DNA from: Octopus vulgaris
Taxonomy: Eukaryota
Reading direction: 5' to 3'
DNA: 64,000 nt
Assembly (NCBI GenBank): GCA_951406725.2
Contig: OX597815.1
Span: 95,914,001-95,978,000, forward strand
In this document: piece after piece, positions 1,613 to 52,400 of the stretch
Layout: the number at the start of each line of letters is the position of its first letter
Numbering within the stretch: position 1 is the first letter of the stretch
Program-made: the position numbers and the translations under genes
The notes under the pieces: model-generated
Seen by the model: the letters and a program-made list of their open reading frames with translations, nothing else
What the model was told of the DNA's origin: nothing
Databases searched by the model: none

Positions 1613-1995
1613 TAAATATTAGGGAATAAATCCAAATTTACAGGGAAAAAAATCAGATTTAGGATTAAATCCAATTTTATAGTAAAATATTATAAAATAT
1701 TATTAGAGACAAAACCACTATTTTGCAAAACAAACAAGGAAAGACTTAATCAATACATAAAATTTTAATAAATAGTCAAAAAACCGCCACTACAATCGTT
1801 TCTTGTCTTGATCGACAATCTTCAGGTGGACTTCAATAAGTCAGTTTCAAATTATGAAGTATTTGAAACTGACTTATTGAAGTCCACCTGAAGATTGTCG
1901 ATCAATGGCGTTTTTTTGACTATTTATTAAAATTTTATGTATTGATTAAGTCTTTCCTTGTTTGTTTTGCAAAATAGTGGTTTTGTCTCTAATAA

Positions 1996-2442: not shown

Positions 2443-3002
2443 TTTATCTCTGGTTAGTGGTTTGAATTTTTAACTGTTCTTTCTAGCACAAGGCTCTCCT
2501 ATGATGGAAGCCTCTTAATGGGTTTTAATGTACATGATATTTTATATGAAGAATATATAGTCTATTTACTAATTTGTTTTTTGTGCTAGGCCATTGATAA
2601 TAAAAAAAATCTATAATTCTTATTACTCTAATATTATTTGTTACGTTTAAATGATTTTTGCTAAATTTGTTCGAAGTTTTACCGGCATCCTCTCTGTTGC
2701 CGAAAATAGACTGCGATTGCGCAGTGAATTTTAAAAGTGAGAATATACAAACAATGAGTTTACATGCGGAATCGATCTCGTTGTGTATTTTAAATCTAAG
2801 GCTACCCACTGATGAAGACGGCCTCAGTAAACGGTTTTTTTACAGAAATAAGTTAGAAACCATGGTCTAGGAATTAAATTAGATGGTAAATGTTTTTAAA
2901 TTGCATTCCCTTTGAGATTTTATCTATTGGTTATAATTTTTAACTGCTCTTTCTAGCCTTCCTATGATAGAAGCCTCTTAATATGTTTTAATGTACACGA
3001 TA
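2443..3002 (+). mobile_element. Terminally redundant monomer (about 463 nt) with an HHR motif (retrozyme/pLTR-like)
   Basis: Diverged direct repeats at about 2443-2538 and 2919-3001 (TAACTG.TCTTTCTAGC...CCTATGAT.GAAGCCTCTTAAT..GTTTTAATGTACA.GAT); AAGCCTCTTAAT starts at 2508 and 2971. Confidence 0.6.
2805..2871 (+). ncRNA. Type I hammerhead motif with degraded stem II
   Basis: CCCA-CUGAUGA-(40 nt)-GAAAC-CAUG-GUC^UAGG; stem III region ACCAUGGU is self-complementary; stem I pairs 3 of 4. Confidence 0.5.
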
Positions 3003-19416: not shown

Positions 19417-20762
19417 CCTCGACTGTCTCCTTGCTCCTATTGGCTTCCTTCCCCTCCTAAATCCACGACACTAACCCTGCTCTCTGTCTCTTTAATTCTT
19501 TCTCCTTCTCTCCTGGCCCCTCTAAACTACTCTTCACTCTTGGTATCAAGAGTCTATGTTTCGTGATCCCCCACAACAAAGGACTCCTTGCACTCAAACA
19601 CTTCCTAGAGCTTCGACCCAACTCCTGACCTGACACCTCCACACCTCTTCGTCAGGCCGAATTTGTTGTACCCCACTATTGCTTCAAGTTCACCGGGAAT
19701 TTTTACCAACAAGTCTCGGGAGTGGCCATGGGCCCGAGAATGGCTCCCAACTATGCGAAACTCTACTTTAGCTATGTTGAGGCCTAAATATGCGAACGAC
19801 TGGCCCCACTCCCGAACTATACGGTAGTTATACTGACGACTCTATCGGTGCACCCTCACACTCCCGCGAACAACAAGACTCCGTCCTCTCTTTTGTCTAC
19901 TCCTTTCACACTGCCCTCGAATTCTCTTGCACTCTATCCTACACTTCCGTCGCATTTCTCGACATTTCTGCCAAAATACACCACTCCGCTCTCACTACCT
20001 CCATTCACTACAAACACACCGACACACACCCTTACCTTAACTTCTCCTCCAACCTTACCAACACCAGGCTCTCCAACCCCTACTCCCAATTCCTCAGTCT
20101 GCGCAGGCTCTGCAGCGACAACCATAACTTTGTGATTTGGTCTCATCTCATTGCTCGCCACTTCAACCTTCGTGGATATCCCATTACCACTAACCACACA
20201 GCCCTTGCCAGAGCACGATCCGTGGAGCGTGCTCTGCTTTCTCTCGCCGTACCGGCCGTTGTCCCTTTCCCGTTTCACGTCACCTACCAACCTTCATCCC
20301 CACCCCTCCAATGCACCATTCTCCGAACCTTCCGGCGACTCCAGTCCGACCCCTCTACCTCGTACTTATTTTGCAACCTACCCCTTAATTCCTTCAAGTG
20401 AGCCCATAACCTGCGTGACCTGTAGGCCCACAGTTTCTTCCCTAAGCCCACCTCACAGTCTGGCTCGTTACGCTGATCACGCTCACGCTTACGCACTTGC
20501 CCCTACCACTCCAACATGATTCTTAAAGACACCCATCATCGTCCCTTTCATATCACCGACATCTTTACCTGCACTTCTAGCAACGTCATTCACTGCATCC
20601 CCCGCTCTATCTGCCCTTCTTTGTACATCGGTCCAAATGAGACGCCGCGTAGCTAACCGATTCCCGGAGCACCTCCAAGGCATTAGACTCAGTAATGACA
20701 TTCCCGTCACGCACCATATCTGCTTCACTGGTCATTCACTACAGAACCTGTCTCTGTTCGGA
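19413..20762 (+). mobile_element. Penelope-like retroelement (probably Neptune group), RT plus GIY-YIG pseudogene, inserted in (TA)n
   Basis: Translation across stops and frameshifts: IPHNKGLLAL, FYQQVSGVAMGPRMAPNYA, SYTDDSIG, VAFLDIS, IHYKHTDTHPYLNFSS, PYSQFLSLRRLCSD, RGYP, NLRDL, FTCTSSNVIHCI...LYIG...RRVANRFPEHL. (TA)n on both sides. Confidence 0.9.
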
Positions 20763-20791
20763 TTGTATATATTTATATATATGTATATATG

Positions 20792-37934: not shown

Positions 37935-40270
37935 TATTTCATAACATTTGCCATAAAGGCAGTACATAGAGTAAGTTAGCTTTGCGGGCTGCACGAGGAC
38001 ATTAATGAAATGAATGATAATGAAAGAAAGATGATGTGGATGGGAGAAGACAAGAAGTGCCCGCCGACTTCTGCTTCTCTAAAACATTGTTCTTTTAAAA
38101 ACAAACACAAAACGAGGTATCAAACCTCTTCCAATTTTTACAAATTTTCAATTTTTGGACTTAACAGTCCATTACTAATAACAACATAGTTCAATAATTA
38201 CATATATAAATACAATACACAAAGCCCCTCCTCCCAGACCTGGCTTACACTTCCCTTAGGAATGCGCCAGCTCTAGGTCCGGGCCCCTCAAGTTGTATCA
38301 CAATTTGACTCGTCCTCGAAATAACTTGTGCCCGCACCCTCCACCATCCACCACGCCTCCCTCATAACGTAATCGAGTTCCGAGTTAGCGTCGCCCGGGA
38401 CCAAGCTATAATCCTCATTGAGCTCCTTCAGCCCAAGCGTCACGTCGAACGCCACGGCCTCCACAGCTACCTGCGGAGGCCATTCGGGGTCCTGTGTGAA
38501 GGCTAAAGGTGCTCCCTTGTGGTGCTTTTCCATCACCTTTTCAATCTCTCCGCCTCTATGGAAGAGGATCAATACCTCGTTTTTGCTCGGGTGCGGGATA
38601 TTCAATTCTTTCGTTGGCGGCACAGTTCCCGCCAACGGTATTTCTTCTCCTGTCGGTGGCACAACCCCAACCGACGTAGTTCCGGGACATTCCGGTGCTA
38701 TGGCACCGACAGCCGGTAATGTCCCGTTTCTTTTCCTCTTTTTCTTTTTTTTCTTTTCAGCTGAGGGAAGGTGCGTCTCCTCCGTGGCCGGAAGATTCGC
38801 CTTTCCCTCCTCATCCCTAGTATCCTTTGGTGAGCACCCATTGTTGCTCACCTTCCTCTTTCGGCCTCTGTTTGAGGAGTCCTCCGCTTCCTCGGCCGTT
38901 TTCATTCCCCCTTCTACAGGGGTTTCACTTAACTGTTCCGGGATCCTATTTTGTTCCCGGGGACAGTTCTTCTTTATATGGCCGCACTCCAAGCACCGAT
39001 GACACTTAGGGGGGCGACCCTCAAGCATCACCGGGTACCTGCACCCGGCCATTTTCAAAAATCTGGAAGAACCAGATTGGCTGATTGGGTCCAAAGGGTC
39101 AAAATTGCTTTTGACCCAACCCAAGCAGCCGCAGGTAGAACTTTCACATTAAGGAGCTTAGTTTCGCTGCCACCCAGACCCCGGCGAATAGTCTCCTCTA
39201 TCCGCTCGGGTTTTATCCCGGGTGGCAGCCCGCAAATCCAAGCTTTCGTCAGTCTCTGTTTTTGGTACGTGGGCAGGAATAAAATTTCCTTACCCTCCAG
39301 GGGTTTGCTAGCAAATTTGCAAGCCTCTTCAGGGGTGTCAAATAGCAACCACACCGTTGCATATTTGACACGCCTGGAAATGAATTTAATTGTTGGCAAA
39401 TACTCTGCCAACTCCTTTTCAATTGCCGTCTTTTCGAATAGGGCGTTGATGTCGAGTGCCTTGGAGTAGGTTCTCAACACCACCGTCCTATCTTCACGGT
39501 CTTTTAACCACTTTTTAGGCGCTATGATCTCTCATTCCAAAATTTTGTCGTTTTTCATTGCCATGTTTTTTTGTTTTTTTTAAATATATTCAAATTAAAC
39601 TTAAAAAGCGAGAAGAAAAAAGTTCAAAAGTCCAAATAAAGTTTGATAGATTTTTGAAAAAACAAAAAGGAGAAAGCACAACAGAAGGGAAGAAATCAAC
39701 GGAAAGTCGCAATAAACAAAAAAAAACAAAAGGGGGAGTTAAATGAAGTTCAAAAGAAAGTTAATAAACAGAAAAAACACAGCAAAAATCTTCTGGCCTT
39801 ACGGTACTCCCGGCCTGAGTTGAACCTGGAACGCCGCAACTGGAACACAACCTCCACAAAAATGGGTCCGAAAGGTAATCCAAAAGTGGCTTATTCTTAT
39901 AATTTTCTTGCGAAGTACTCTGACAAGGGAATAAATTCAACAAACCCAAACACAGCACTGGCTACCGCCAACGGTAATTTTAACAGTAACTGTATTGGGT
40001 TCCGAGGATACGCCCCTCCACTGTTTTTTTTTTCCAATAAACACAAAAACAAAGCAGCCGCCGAGAGCAGGCGAAATTGTCTCAGAGTTGGACACAACTT
40101 ATTGAAATAATAATTAGCACGCAATAAATTGTGCCCAACTCACAATAAACAAAATCACTCACCTCGACAACTTTCTGTTTTTGGTCTTTTTTCTATAATT
40201 GGACGGAGCTGGTTAACTCACGTCCACTCTGGCTCAACAGGAAGCAACTGACTAACTGCGCATGTGTGTT
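37935..40270 (-). mobile_element. ORF1-only non-LTR retroelement (HAL1-like, probably L1/Tx1-related), about 2.3 kb, with TSD
   Basis: TSD AG(A/C)AAGCTACTT at 37923-37934 and 40271-40282; minus strand ends in AATAAA; about 700-nt 5' UTR, one gag-like ORF, about 350-nt 3' UTR, no RT sequence. Confidence 0.8.
38288..39564 (-). pseudogene. LINE ORF1p-like nucleic-acid-binding protein (RRM-like region plus CCHC zinc knuckle)
   Basis: ATG at 39564 is in frame with ORF 39055..39483 with one TGA at codon 11; a frameshift near 39060 joins LVLPDF to LKMAGCRYPVMLEGRPPK-CHRCLECGHIKKNC (CX2CX4HX4C); basic KKKKKKRKR tract. Confidence 0.8.
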
Positions 40271-45900: not shown

Positions 45901-47987
45901 CTAAAATTGGGTCTGTGTATGTATAAACACATGCAGTACCCATGTTGGTGAATGGTACTCAAAGGACTCACTGCGTTTGAGAGGAAAGAATTCCATCGGT
46001 GTTTAACATAATTTTCCCAATCCTGATATTTGTAAAAGAATTACTTCTATCATCATACATATTTGTGTCGTTTGTTTAGAATTATAGCAACGACAAATAC
46101 AACAATATAGGCAGAATTTCCTGATATTTCAAGGCACATTTTTCAGTAGAATACTACCATCCAATTTTATCGAAACTAAGCAATTTCCGAGTGCATATCT
46201 TCAAGAATCATAATAAATTTCAAACATCGATATAAGTCTATCTTATGTAAACTTAAGATTATTCTTCTATGTAATTATTGCGAAAATTGTGATTGATTCA
46301 TATTGTTAATGTGCATGCAGTAAATCCCATCCAGAGCAGATCAAAACGAAAATTATCACCGCGATTAACAGTTAATTCACTCTGCTTTCATAATGAAACA
46401 CGTATCAAGAAAATTTGCTCTAAAACATGTTTCAAAATAACTAGTTATAGGGACAGTAAATGTCGTATATTTAAGAGTTAGGCTTTGCAACTTCGTGCCT
46501 CTTATTGCGTGACACACCGGGTAAATTTATTTTAGTTTAATATCAGTATTGCCCTTGCCTTATCAGTAAAATTCAGTTGGCGGTACATACAAAGAAATGC
46601 GTTGTATATTTACTTATACGCATAGTCATGTTTATGTTGTATCCTCCTATGTGATTGAGCGTTTCCACAAAAGACTCCAATATATATTTAGTTGGGATAT
46701 AAGCATGCAAGTAAAGCACCTGATCTTAGTATCTCAGCGTGGATTAACAACTGAAGTCAGGGGGAAATTAAATTGGTAAAAGAATCCAATACTCGAATAA
46801 TCAAATTAAACTATACTATCCTGAAATCTGATGTGGGATATGTTATTAGAAAGACATTGCTCGACTGAATGCTTTAAGTGAAGCATGATTAAAGGCCGAC
46901 ATTTCTTTGTCGCTGGTCTCCTTAGCTAAACTGACCACTACCAAAGTAAAACTATACAATCACATATTTACAAGAACATTAAGTGTTTGAATTAAACGGA
47001 AACACAGTATTGTTTGTAAATTCTGATTAATCTTTTGTTTTCAGCGAAACAAAATCCATCTATCGTTGCGGCTAAGTATATGCTTTATTTGATCAAAGTC
47101 TTCAAGATTCAAATGCAGAAACACTTTCCTCCACAAACGCCACTCACCATTTCTGTCTTAGGGACTCATGTTGCCGCACGTTAGCATAAACACCCGATCA
47201 ATTCCTGTAAAAGCGACCCAGCACAACATCAAACCGAAGAGGGCTAGAGGGAGACAGCTACATCTCTTTAACGTTTGTTTAAACATTTTTTGTCTTTTTT
47301 ACGTGAGCTTCGCGTACGTTTTCGAAACAGAAGTATAAAGTATATGAACACATTTCTGTAACGAATCATGAAGCCCTGGTTTTTCAACCATAAATCTGAA
47401 TGATTAGTTACTTATAGCTATAATTAAAAACACTATTAATATCTACTACATGTGGGAAGGTGCAATAGCTATTCAGCTCAAAAATGTGTTTAAATTAACG
47501 GGAATATTAAGTTGTCAAACAATTGTAGGGCGGTGCCTCGTTTATGGGATGTCATTTTAAAGCTACATGTGACATATCATCCGATGAAAGAGAAAACATA
47601 TTAACTTAGTACAGGAGATTATTTTAATTAAACAAAACCTATCTTGCTTACTGCTTTAATATCTAAGAGTTATTAAACTACCCTTTCGTACATATACCAC
47701 AACAGGAATTACTCTGTTCAATGCTTTTTGTGATGATGGTTAGTTTTTTATTCGATTTTTTTTTTTCAATTGGAGCTCTCATTTACAGAACTAATGCATC
47801 ATATTCTACAACAATGGGACACTGAAATTTAGGCCAAAATTTCGTGAGTTCTGAGATTGTTGCTGAGTACTGCTATTTAAGTGGTAAAAATATATGCGTG
47901 TATCATTATTATTCTTATATTCATATTTTACCCGCACCAAAGCATAAAGATACAAACATATGAATATTTACATGAGTATGTGAGTGC

Positions 47988-48056
<69 letters not shown>

Positions 48057-48279
48057 ATCAATATAGGGTGGCAAAAAAAATTTTGTAGAATTCTTTTGCC
48101 ACCAGCGGCCTAGTAGGAAAAAATTAAATAGTCATAGACCATTTTTAAGTTTAACATCAACAATCAAGGAACGGCCATAATAGGCCATTCACCCACTAGA
48201 AATAACAGCCAAAGCTTCAACCGCAAATAAAAGTTAATTCTGTAAACCAGGAGAAAATTTAAAAAACATTTACCCTGTA

Positions 48280-48386
48280 ATTTCTTATACGATATACCGT
48301 TTCATCTGCTGATTAATGGTAAACTAACCTGATTAAATTAAATCAAGCCAATCTTCCACAGGCCCTCAGATTCATCAGTAAGAAAT
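48280..48386 (-). ncRNA. Intact type I hammerhead ribozyme (extended stem II)
   Basis: Reverse complement of 48851-48957; predicted cleavage between 48288 and 48287. Confidence 0.88.
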
Positions 48387-48850
48387 AGCCCAAGTCGGAA
48401 CAGATATTTTCACGAGGCATTTCCGACCTTGCCAAGTTTATATCTGACCTAAAATTTTCAAATCGTCGCACTCGCGCCAAATTTATCGGCAGCAAATAAA
48501 TATAAGCCGTCGATTCCATTACGGAATTAACCAGAAAATTCATAATTAATCAATATAGGGTGGCAAAAAAAATTTTGTAGAATTCTTTTGCCACCAGCGG
48601 TCTAAAAATGGTCTATGACTATTTAATTTTTTCCTACTAGGCCGCTGGTGGCAAAAGAATTCTACAAAATTTTTTGGCCAATATTGATTAATTATGAATT
48701 TTCTGGTTAATTCCGTAATGGAATCGACGGCTTATATTTATTTGCTGCCGATAAATTTGGCGCGAGTGCGACGATTTGAAAATTTTAGGTCAGATATAAA
48801 CTTGGCAAGGTCGGAAATGCCTCGTGAAAATATCTGTTCCGACTTGGGCT

Positions 48851-48957
48851 ATTTCTTACTGATGAATCTGAGGGCCTGTGGAAGATTGGCTTGATTTAAT
48901 TTAATCAGGTTAGTTTACCATTAATCAGCAGATGAAACGGTATATCGTATAAGAAAT
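48851..48957 (+). ncRNA. Intact type I hammerhead ribozyme (extended stem II)
   Basis: AUUUCUUA-CUGAUGA-AUCUG(58 nt including hairpin GAUUGGCUUGAUU/AAUCAGGUUAGUU)CAGAU-GAAAC-GGUAUAUC-GUA^UAAGAAAU; perfect 8-bp stem I, 5-bp stem II base, 4-bp stem III; cleavage after 48949. Confidence 0.88.
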
Positions 48958-49073
48958 TACAGGGTAAATGTTTTTAAATTTTCTCCTGGTTTACAGAATT
49001 AACTTTTATTTGCGGTTGAAGCTTTGGCTGTTATTTCTAGTGGTGAATGCCTATTATGGCGTTCCTTGATTGT

Positions 49074-49077
<4 letters not shown>

Positions 49078-49114
<37 letters not shown>

Positions 49115-49124
49115 TATATAACAT

Positions 49125-49188
<64 letters not shown>

Positions 49189-49272
49189 CATATATACATA
49201 TGTACATATATATACACATATATATATATGTATATATATATACATATATATATATACACATATATATATGTA

Positions 49273-49306
<34 letters not shown>

Positions 49307-49450
49307 CATATTTATATATGTATGTATGCATATCTATATGCATACATACATACACACACACATGTATATGTATATATATGTGTGCATATATATATATATA
49401 TATATGTATATGTATGTATGTATATGTATGTATGTATATGTATATGTTTA
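49078..49450. repeat. Long interrupted (TA)n/(CA)n/(TG)n microsatellite
   Basis: Read directly from the sequence. Confidence 0.95.
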
Positions 49451-52400
49451 TATGCTTATAACATATTTTTTGCATTTTGTGGCTGGCTGCCAATACGAAA
49501 AGAGGTACCAGCGGAAAATCTCCTAAAATGTGATGAAATAATCTATTCAAGGTCCATTTCAACCAATTTGAGTATCGGCAATTTTTTACTTTATTTTTAG
49601 GCATTTATGCATAAAATTATGTCTTCCAGCAAATATGTTTATAGGACATATAGCTCTAAATTACTAGAAAACACCCAGTGTAACATATCAATCTGCCTTA
49701 AGCGAAATTGTGCCATATTATCTCATAATATTTATTGAACGAGCTGTTCAGTTAATTGGGCAATATCATACCATGCATTACCATTATTCGTGCAGCAGGT
49801 ATTGTAATGATTCTATAATTCTTACACTGCGAGGTTAATACGAAGCTGAGAAAATAACGGCAGCGTGTAGTGTGGCCGTCATAATCAGGAATTGTTTGCA
49901 TTAGTTTGTGTCTTTAGCGAAAGTGAGAATCACGTCAAGTCCATCTCTAAATAGGTTTCTCCTCCGTCTACACATCAGAAAACGCATAGTTGAAAATAAA
50001 ACTGCTGTAACATGATACACAAAGTATTCGTAGTTATAAGAAACCTTTAAAATACAAAGGACTAACACCTACCACTGATACATAGACACACGCACACACA
50101 CATAGATACACATATACACACCATACATACACACACATACATACATGCATACATACATGCTCACAGATTCAAGCCATCACTGGAAATGTAAATATCTGTA
50201 ACACTTTCCAGAAGTTTGTCATTTAAATATATATGAGGATATCTAGATATACAAGTATATGCATAAAATGTACATCAAACTAAAAACACAAATCTGCGCA
50301 TATACATACATACATATATACATACATACATTCAAAAATACTCTGATGATATTCTTGAAATCTCAATGAAAGAGACTGGTATCTAGGTTTGAAACCGACT
50401 ATTTCTTTAATGGTAAGATATCTTAAAATAAAATTGAAGAAAGGCATACATACGTTCATTCATACATTCATGCATAAAATCAATGCTTATTACAAATGAA
50501 GTACATTTCCTTTTCTAAATTCAATACACCTTACACAAATAATTTAATTTGTACTTCAGAAGGTGACAACCTTAATGGCCAAGGCATTATGATAACCCGA
50601 ATCCCTAAAATTGCACATATACAGATATATGTTGTACGGTATTTAGGCATATTCACTTTTGGTGGCTTCCCTCATTTTGTTATCTGTTTACTTTTTTATA
50701 GTATAACATTTTCTTTGAATTATCTGTGTGAAAACTGTCTAGTAACTTAAGAGCAGGTAAGCACGAAGGTATTCGACTGAAAGGCTTTGTCTCATCCTTT
50801 TGTTTGTCAAACTTTGATTAAAGAATGACCTTATACGAATATAAGGTTTTGTGGGTCGGGTGTCGCCTCTTGCAAAGAGAAAGAACAAAAACTTCACAAC
50901 TTTAAATTCTGCTTCAACTCTTGATATGACAATCTAATGCTACAGCTTCAAGCAACAGTACTGTCAAGAAAGAATGGCGCTATTCTTTCTTTTGAAGATA
51001 AGTCACACTAAACTAACTCCTGGTACATGGTGTTCCTCTCTAATATTTGGATATTCAGTTCTTCATTTCTCAAGGTGATGTAACTGTTGCAGTTAATTGA
51101 ATCATTTAATTTAAATGTAGTCGCATAACTTCAATCAATCTTTGCTGCAATGTGTGTATATGTGCCTCTTGCCACTTACCACACGCAAAATTTCATTCTT
51201 TCGTTAGTATCATGTACATTGAGAAGATGGATGAATCGTTTGATGGAACTTTTCTAAAATGCAATGGACTCTTGATTTTTCAAATTCCTATCTGACCAGA
51301 GATGTTCGTGAACAATTGGAATACTTTCTACTAACCGTTCTTGCTTTGAAGGTCCATTGATACCAGCAGTCTTCCTGACGTTCTGAACACTTCCATCTGT
51401 TTCAAATATTTTAACTGTCACATGGACATTTCTGTTAACGTAAAATAAACGACAACCTACCTCAAGTACCATCGCCCTTCCTGGCTCCTGGGTATGATTA
51501 AATGATTACTTTTGTTGAAATAATATGCTTTAAGATTTTAGTCGGGTAGAACCGTCGTTACTTTACTTGTTTGTATAAATGAAAATAGTGTGGGCGTTGA
51601 CCACCCTCCCTTGATTATGGTAATATACAAAGACAACGTTGAATTTTAGATACCTATGGTAACGGCGACATATTATCTATAAGCAAGACTTTTCATAACA
51701 CTATTCTGATAGATGTATTGATAACACTGGTTCTGATAGCTGCATTGACGTCGAAAATCAATTTAATATTTTACTGATGTATAATGAAAAACGTGTAGCC
51801 ATTAGTATTTTATAGTCGGGTTTTGTCTCAAGAATATTATATAGTTTTCTATATTATGAATATGGAAACTTATATTATTTTCTATATTATTTTCTAGGTG
51901 ACAGTGATAGTTATCAGTTTCACTAACTACCAAAATCAAAGGTAGCTGTTAAATTATAGCAGTTACGTGGAATAGAAATCTGGTTTCTTTCAACGCAACA
52001 TCTTTTGCAAATAGCATTTCACAATTAAAGAATGAGAATTTGTATTTCGTTCCCATCAAATGTCATGGATTGATGCCTGGTTGGTAGCGTCCTTGAGCAA
52101 GGCACACGATTTCACGTTCTGCCAACCTATGGAGCTGAAAATGAGTTAAAATCTCCTGTCGGTACCAGATTATCCCACTCAACGTTTTCCATCTTCAATG
52201 TTGTGCTATGTCAAACGTCGGAGAACTGAGGACGTCTTTTGTCTGTTATTGTATAGATAGGCAACTTAGCAGTAAATAATATCCTGGTAGCTGCTATCGA
52301 GCCATATCTCATTGTAAGCGACGGCTGTTGCATTCTGCAAAATAAACATTATTAAGTTTTGTGAAGTATGTGGTTTTACAGTTACCGAAGAAAAGGTTTT

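Follow-up and report, generated by a model that had tools for sequence, protein, structure and literature searches.

A two-armed hammerhead retrozyme in the octopus genome, probably primed at two fixed sites by a Penelope-type reverse transcriptase

A palindromic insert and its non-coding family

The window analyzed here, a 64,000-nucleotide stretch of Octopus vulgaris DNA, carries a palindromic insert of about 1 kb within (TA)n, composed of two inverted arms of one 492-nt monomer with low G+C content (35%). Its features are as follows, in window coordinates.

47988..48053, no strand: (AT)n target on the left, from flank composition
48054..48600, minus strand: arm A, whose outer end is family site A and whose ribozyme is read from the minus strand; length 547 nt (1.11 monomers)
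48054..48155, minus strand: tail bounded by start sites A and B, of 102 nt in this copy
48280..48386, minus strand: copy 1 of the type I hammerhead, its cut predicted between 48288 and 48287
48546..48600, minus strand: start of a second turn, the terminal redundancy, stopping at the variable inner break
48601..48604, no strand: inversion junction, read as 2 additional nt or as an overlap of 2 nt that contains one mismatch
48603..49077, plus strand: arm B, whose outer end is family site B and whose ribozyme is read from the plus strand; length 475 nt (0.97 monomer)
48851..48957, plus strand: copy 2 of the type I hammerhead, its cut predicted after 48949
49076..49453, no strand: (AT)-rich target on the right, from flank composition

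The left arm (48054-48600) contains one 492-nt monomer plus 55 nt, a redundancy of 59 nt if a C>T change at 48601 and the 2-nt overlap are allowed. The right arm (48603-49077) is inverted and 97.9% identical to the left; it begins at the equivalent of 48147, passes the monomer junction, and, 8 nt before a full turn would be complete, stops at the equivalent of 48156. With monomer phase 1 set at window position 48156, the left arm starts at phase 391 and extends over 547 nt, and the inverted right arm starts at phase 484 and reaches phase 1 after 475 nt. The initial annotation had described this palindrome of a 492-nt monomer in (TA)n, with these arm limits and with both arms ending away from the cut site, and all of this was reproduced. 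The right arm has a few deletions of 1 to 4 nt, mainly within short runs, which may be consensus errors. In copy 1, the predicted cut lies (in the RNA sense) 132 nt upstream of B and 234 nt upstream of A. The tail contains a hairpin kept in three sister families, and its ends vary by a few nucleotides across the family.

Because each strand carries a single sense-strand hammerhead, the window copy should itself be unable to free a monomer. Two tandem hammerheads are expected of an active copy (2026 preprint); the window copy lacks them, whereas many family loci have at least two. The window copy is typical in that its arms start at the fixed sites of the family, and it is probably an ordinary, inert member.

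Across the 2.8-Gb genome, a query with the left arm returned 1,205 first-look candidates, the best 40 of which were scored and gave 189 matches at 93-100% identity. A 24-mer ending at the predicted cut had 2,257 exact matches, followed by T in 1,616, by G in 627, and by A or C in 14; matches followed by G belong to a subfamily of 92% identity whose triplet is GUC. Three further sister families share the layout, and the identity of 66-82% across the four spans the whole monomer, beyond the part between hammerhead and A. One of these non-coding families, the fourth, was found with a degenerate hammerhead pattern that covered 6 of the 16 stem III letter pairs. No open reading frame (ORF) was attached to the monomer in the scanned matches of the first family (40), family 3 (30), or family 4 (30 of 201 pattern matches), and the reverse transcriptase (RT) plus GIY-YIG ORF expected of an autonomous Penelope-like element (PLE) was missing from all family loci examined. 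The family is young, non-coding, and spread genome-wide over several hundred loci, and it has the form expected of a retrozyme, a dispersed non-coding tandem repeat with a monomer a few hundred bp long.

Other hammerhead-like sequences were also observed. At window positions 2809-2990 (plus strand) lies an older motif, with a GUC triplet, whose CUGAUGA core is at 2809 and whose GAAAC is at 2856; next to it come 27 nt that match what follows the cut site in the 492-nt family, and it is probably a decayed distant relative. Another, at about 1780-1830 (minus strand), resembles a motif in a 390-nt palindrome elsewhere (L287:1102-1488). An unrelated 480-bp tandem with a compact hammerhead occurs at L270:1-892 and L234:7389, and the genome contains several independent hammerhead repeat families. 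Two open frames at 38291-39531 (minus strand; 286 and 158 aa) belong to a dispersed repeat, also present at L055, with no Pfam match.

Hammerhead structure and arm stops at the predicted cut

A type I hammerhead in each arm had been described, with an 8-bp stem I, a GUA triplet, and a long stem II, and the core, the stems, and covariation across the sister families bear this out. Both copies have a CUGAUGA/GAAA core, an 8-bp stem I, a 68-nt stem II, and a 4-bp stem III with a UAUA loop, the GUA triplet of copy 2 ending at 48949. In isolation the motif folds with z = -4.7, and the canonical hammerhead lies 1.9 kcal/mol above the minimum-energy fold. An Rfam search, suggested by the initial annotation as a check, returned no hammerhead at the gathering cut-off in the window and none even at E <= 10 in 47900-49200, where the matches were to hairpin-driven miRNA models only; the 68-nt stem II probably caused this miss. 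Across 15 sequences from three families and the GUC subfamily (related rows, with shuffle counts that are not probabilities), 94% of the cells in stems I and III were paired, compared with 34-45% in slid controls; changes on both sides were seen in 9 of the 12 pairs, and the core was unchanged. Stem II, 60-68 nt long in the retrozyme families, is closed in every family by different pairs. Core variants were observed at one locus of the first family (CUGAAGA, L068) and in part of family 4 (CCGAUGA at L318, L319, L322, and L333).

Read-through of the insert had been expected to yield a long hairpin RNA with a self-cleavage site in its second arm. The hammerhead there would be wholly taken up, with 107 of its 107 nt paired to the other arm in a transcript of either strand.

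Arm ends coincided exactly with the predicted cut 12 times, against about 1.6 expected, and with a single control position two bases off 4 times, against 2.1 expected, where the expectations take 51 arms per first 100 24-mer matches, counted by hand, and suppose letter shares of 0.5 and 0.65. In other words, 12 of the 14 24-mer matches followed by A or C, from 13 loci, were true arm ends or jumps at the cut, versus 4 of 8 at the control (direct comparison, P = 0.011). About 1% of arms or passages halted precisely there; at locus L300 both arms did (134 and 234 nt), and 4 of the 12 cut-stopped arms had first passed one or two earlier cut sites. These stops are indirect evidence, drawn from genomic copies, that the predicted cut may be cleaved in vivo. 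The 234-nt segment from the cut through B to A adopts a like fold in three families, with 38 pairs of which 3 have changed on both sides, and the monomer folded as a circle scored z = -5.6 against 40 shuffles.

Outer ends, inner junctions, and template haplotypes

We compared arm ends at 78 loci, 40 chosen by best left-arm match and 38 by the GUC pattern, with the site windows set at phases 385-398 for A and 488-9 for B. The outer ends are fixed across the family at A (48054 in the window) and B (the equivalent of 48156), about 104 nt apart, and 53 of the 55 classifiable two-ended loci paired A with B, with an inversion between them (P = 4e-14 against free pairing). The two exceptions, one A/A and one B/B, are palindromes that take in flanking DNA; the other loci were one-armed (n = 17), had one atypical end (n = 5), or were clipped at the edge of the retrieved sequence (n = 1). 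A sample picked solely by a 25-mer (14 of 34 further C1 loci, with 10-mer and 7-mer arrays among the other 20) held six plain A+B loci and no A/A or B/B locus, the others being one-armed or complex. A stub of the complementary end, 5-19 nt long, was present in 7 of 23 one-armed loci. The arms had been taken for free circular permutations of the monomer, but only the inner junction is variable.

Among 47 simple two-arm loci, the two flanks were (AT)-rich in 46 and 47, so that the family loci show the microsatellite target expected of PLEs; target-site duplications are unreadable within (AT)n. Junctions ranged from -9 to +21 nt and were chiefly overlaps of 1-5 nt. Inner ends were scattered over the monomer, and 84 of the 94 arms passed at least one cut site, in samples biased toward such arms. 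This spread is at odds with classical twin priming, in which arm A stops where arm B starts.

A tabulation of copy ends had been proposed earlier, with fixed ends as the mark of a plain MITE. The ends did prove fixed, but the plain MITE did not follow, being at odds with unlike ends and varying lengths: the terminal inverted repeats and uniform length of such elements are absent, the two ends differing by the tail and the arms spanning 0.1-9 monomers. A MITE-like DNA element, a satellite homogenized by gene conversion, and a fold-back assembly artefact can be considered together. The fixed outer ends would suit this group, as would palindromes such as L038 and L043 that include flanking DNA, the small right-arm deletions, and the fact that the window locus's own junction is not among the joints listed in sequencing-run contigs. 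Yet the outer ends are different sequences, length and center differ from locus to locus, the ribozyme covaries, the same grammar holds across four sister families, and (AT)n joins at A and B recur in contigs of other runs (X1, X3, and X9). These readings are largely refuted and we regard them as exceedingly improbable. At L038 and L043 themselves, palindromes around a family copy reach into the flanks and could be secondary inverted duplications or fold-back artefacts.

The inversion could also have arisen from one priming followed by a strand switch or fold-back of the RT on its own cDNA, the second fixed end being a termination or resolution site. The initial annotation had invoked such a strand switch, and the tail was formerly ascribed to endonuclease resolution (PMC8557442). 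There is a mild surplus of near-mirror inner ends, which lay within 40 nt in phase at 14 of the 47 loci against an expectation of 7.7 (post hoc P = 0.016), hinting that some events involved fold-back. However, inner ends are mostly unrelated in phase, arm B is at least as long as arm A at 12 of the 47 loci, either arm is sometimes very short, and both tail ends correspond to RT start sites in vitro (PMC11167929). Single priming is therefore improbable, and two primings, one on each target strand, explain the inversion better than a strand switch does.

Monomer copies differed, on average, at 0.0021 of sites within a locus, 0.0020 between its two arms, and 0.0125 between loci (102 homopolymer-adjacent positions masked; the poorly aligned L035 and L045 left out). 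The GUC set gave 0.0073 within and 0.0273 between loci, in the same direction, figures that are raised by L178 (two neighboring insertions) and L193 (of the other subfamily). The 38 loci held 26 haplotypes; 82 variants were fixed across their locus, 16 of them private and 12 of these present in both arms, compared with 9 multi-monomer variants that were only partial within their locus. Both arms of a locus thus derive, as read from these copies, from one template haplotype, and arrays often go through a single monomer; gene conversion could contribute to the sameness within loci. Partial variants occurred at a spacing of 5 monomers in L037 and L039 and at the matching monomer of both arms in L048 and L058, and two alleles were mixed in L060; these five loci fit a multimeric template better than a monomer circle.

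The same two-site priming could usually have used a linear multimeric transcript, uncleaved or partly cleaved, with circles rare or absent. Beyond the partial variants at matched or periodic positions (L037, L039, L048, and L058), this reading can draw on the 4 of 12 cut-stopped arms that had read through earlier cut sites, as a partly cleaved multimer would allow, and on in vitro work in which unprocessed RNA was the main PLE RT substrate (PMC11167929). In the same work the PLE ribozyme was dispensable for insertion, which counts against the circle-based account favored below. But copying of a linear template can only reduce array length, and new mutations would be handed down as partial variants, whereas fixed variants far outnumber partial ones; this excess and the many haplotypes imply frequent passage through a single monomer followed by re-expansion. 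We consider a linear template unlikely, though still an appreciable possibility, and a circle the somewhat better supported usual template.

The monomer stretch was present in 20 of 24 sequencing runs, under six organism labels, and no run was recorded as RNA. Contigs of four runs, RNA by guess, were compared with the monomer and covered it; in run X9 (organism B), one 472-nt contig spans the monomer junction, being strandless and compatible with a circle or a tandem. In an X3 contig the ribozyme strand is connected, at a GT (48964) located 15 nt past the cut, to C27 sequence that follows an acceptor-like pyrimidine tract and CAG (L242:1500-1530). No family copy lies within 190 kb upstream in the assembly and the GT is missing from family 2, which leaves splicing as no more than a possibility.

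Candidate mechanism and relation to known systems

The monomer might instead be the pseudo-LTR (pLTR) end of a coding PLE, the loci being truncated copies. Its anatomy is like that of the pLTRs of coding Hydra-like PLEs in this genome, and low-copy coding parents could escape a search in which the top candidates alone were scored. Against this stand the head-to-tail arrays of up to 9 monomers without an ORF, the lack of an attached ORF in the scanned loci of the first, third, and fourth families, and the conservation of the whole monomer at 66-82% identity over four sister families, which leave the pLTR reading very improbable. Five monomer baits shared no sequence with a coding partner among 92 PLE loci from sampled families (32 of a young RVT_1 plus GIY-YIG family and 60 Hydra-like); the matches found were separate (AT)n-bounded retrozyme insertions and one 19-nt AT-rich match.

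The coding Hydra-like PLEs carry RWR/RWL, DKT, CxCX5C, CxxC, and CxH motifs, hammerheads with a long stem II, (AT)n ends, and two end sites separated by about 150-175 nt, with a different end site for each arm in all three loci at which two arms are visible (L221, L355, and L350). Past the cut, the ends lie at 185-205 and 340-384 nt in one such family (12 loci) and at 66-68 and 217 nt in a second (2 loci), compared with about 130 and about 234 nt in the retrozyme families. Judged from the sequences, long tails are common to the retrozyme families and the Hydra-like PLEs of this genome, and on anatomy the partner enzyme is probably a Hydra-clade PLE. Young coding Hydra-like loci with long tails include L345-L362, L221, and L224, the published tail being 30-40 bp. 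The window itself holds a broken RT plus GIY-YIG Penelope-like copy (19437-20765, plus strand), unrelated to the monomer; the relatives of this broken copy are abundant and constitute a very young family, in which open frames reach 1,211 aa.

The initial annotation had proposed a non-autonomous hammerhead retrozyme copied in trans by a Penelope-type RT from circular or multimeric RNA, and the missing ORFs, the arrays of 0.1 to 9 monomers, and the clonal loci agree with it. That the insert is a PLE-mobilized non-LTR retrozyme is highly probable. Two-site priming on one RNA molecule is nearly as strongly favored. The outer ends are fixed and unequal, the inversion point is variable, and each locus has a single haplotype across its arms. 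Taken whole, a non-coding hammerhead retrozyme primed at A and B by a Penelope-type RT on one RNA, plausibly a circle, is the account we moderately favor. Multimeric transcripts of arrays with at least two hammerheads would be cut into monomers and ligated into circles. A Penelope-type RT-endonuclease, probably of the Hydra clade, would nick both strands of a (TA)n tract, and two cDNAs would be primed on one RNA (probably the 492-nt circle), one at A and one at B. The RT would circle the template and stop at random, or at the cut where the ribozyme had opened the RNA; the cDNA 3' ends would be joined at short overlaps, and host fill-in would leave a palindrome whose RNA 3' sides face outward. 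The window copy would be a dead-end insertion.

More tentatively, these insertions may record a PLE enzyme circling one hammerhead RNA circle from two structured start sites simultaneously, one for each nicked strand, while in about 1% of cases the ribozyme opens the template. The lineage would be SINE-like (at least four sister families at 66-82% identity) and would retain a 234-nt fold recognized by a Hydra-clade enzyme with a tail of 100-175 nt rather than 30-40.

Circle copying of animal retrozymes by PLE enzymes has been proposed from co-occurrence and pLTR kinship (PMC7229834, PMC4209133, bioRxiv 10.64898/2026.07.22.740005), and the origin of inverted, tailed PLE insertions was called open (PMC8557442). 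Per-locus haplotypes in this young family leave footprints bearing on both, in the same RNA in both arms, the strict A+B pairing, and the stops at the cut, and the family supplies a 234-nt RNA and candidate coding enzymes for bench tests. Outside subscription journals and repeat databases, our literature search found no two-armed retrozyme insertions or tails near 100 nt, although the supplements of PMC8557442 could include such families or longer tails.

Animal retrozymes have monomers of 170-400 nt (PMC7229834) or 51-972 bp (bioRxiv 10.64898/2026.07.22.740005); their circular RNAs have been shown, and PLE RT copying was proposed in the same two sources. The present family resembles animal non-LTR retrozymes (Cervera and de la Pena 2020, PMC7229834; Li, Clavereau, and Pollet, preprint) in its dispersed, non-coding, low-G+C tandem monomers with one type I hammerhead each. 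It differs in its 492-nt monomer and its 60-68-nt stem II, and the circle is inferred here but shown there. Two-armed inverted insertions with two fixed starts are undescribed in the portions of those sources covered, and the word "inverted" occurs 0 times in the main text of PMC7229834.

Insertions of PLEs include inverted truncated copies, a tail, and (TA)n targets (PMC8557442); in vitro, a PLE RT used two internal starts downstream of the hammerhead, bounding a 30-40-bp tail, and both target strands were extended (PMC11167929). Like the EN+ PLEs (Craig et al. 2021, PMC8557442; Frangieh et al. 2024, PMC11167929), the family targets (TA)n, forms partial tandems and an inverted copy truncated on its 5' side, has a tail at one of its ends, and places its hammerhead upstream of two starts, but it has no ORF, its tail is about 104 nt rather than the 30-40 published, and its A+B pairing is nearly exceptionless. 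With the Hydra clade (PMC8557442) it has (TA)n targeting and canonical hammerheads in common; the coding Hydra-like elements here, assigned by motifs, also share its long stem II and long tails, but their ends do not match the monomer. Non-autonomous Chlamys elements such as MRC1 (PMC8557442) are likewise PLE derivatives with pLTRs and head-to-tail insertions, but they are green algal, mostly lack canonical hammerheads, and resemble their coding partners at the 3' end. Finally, Schistosoma also has two PLE-related hammerheads on opposite strands, spaced 100-700 bp apart (Cervera and de la Pena 2014, PMC4209133); their ends and mechanism are unanalyzed in the portion of that paper covered, those hammerheads are minimal ones, and circles were proposed as templates of more-than-unit copying.
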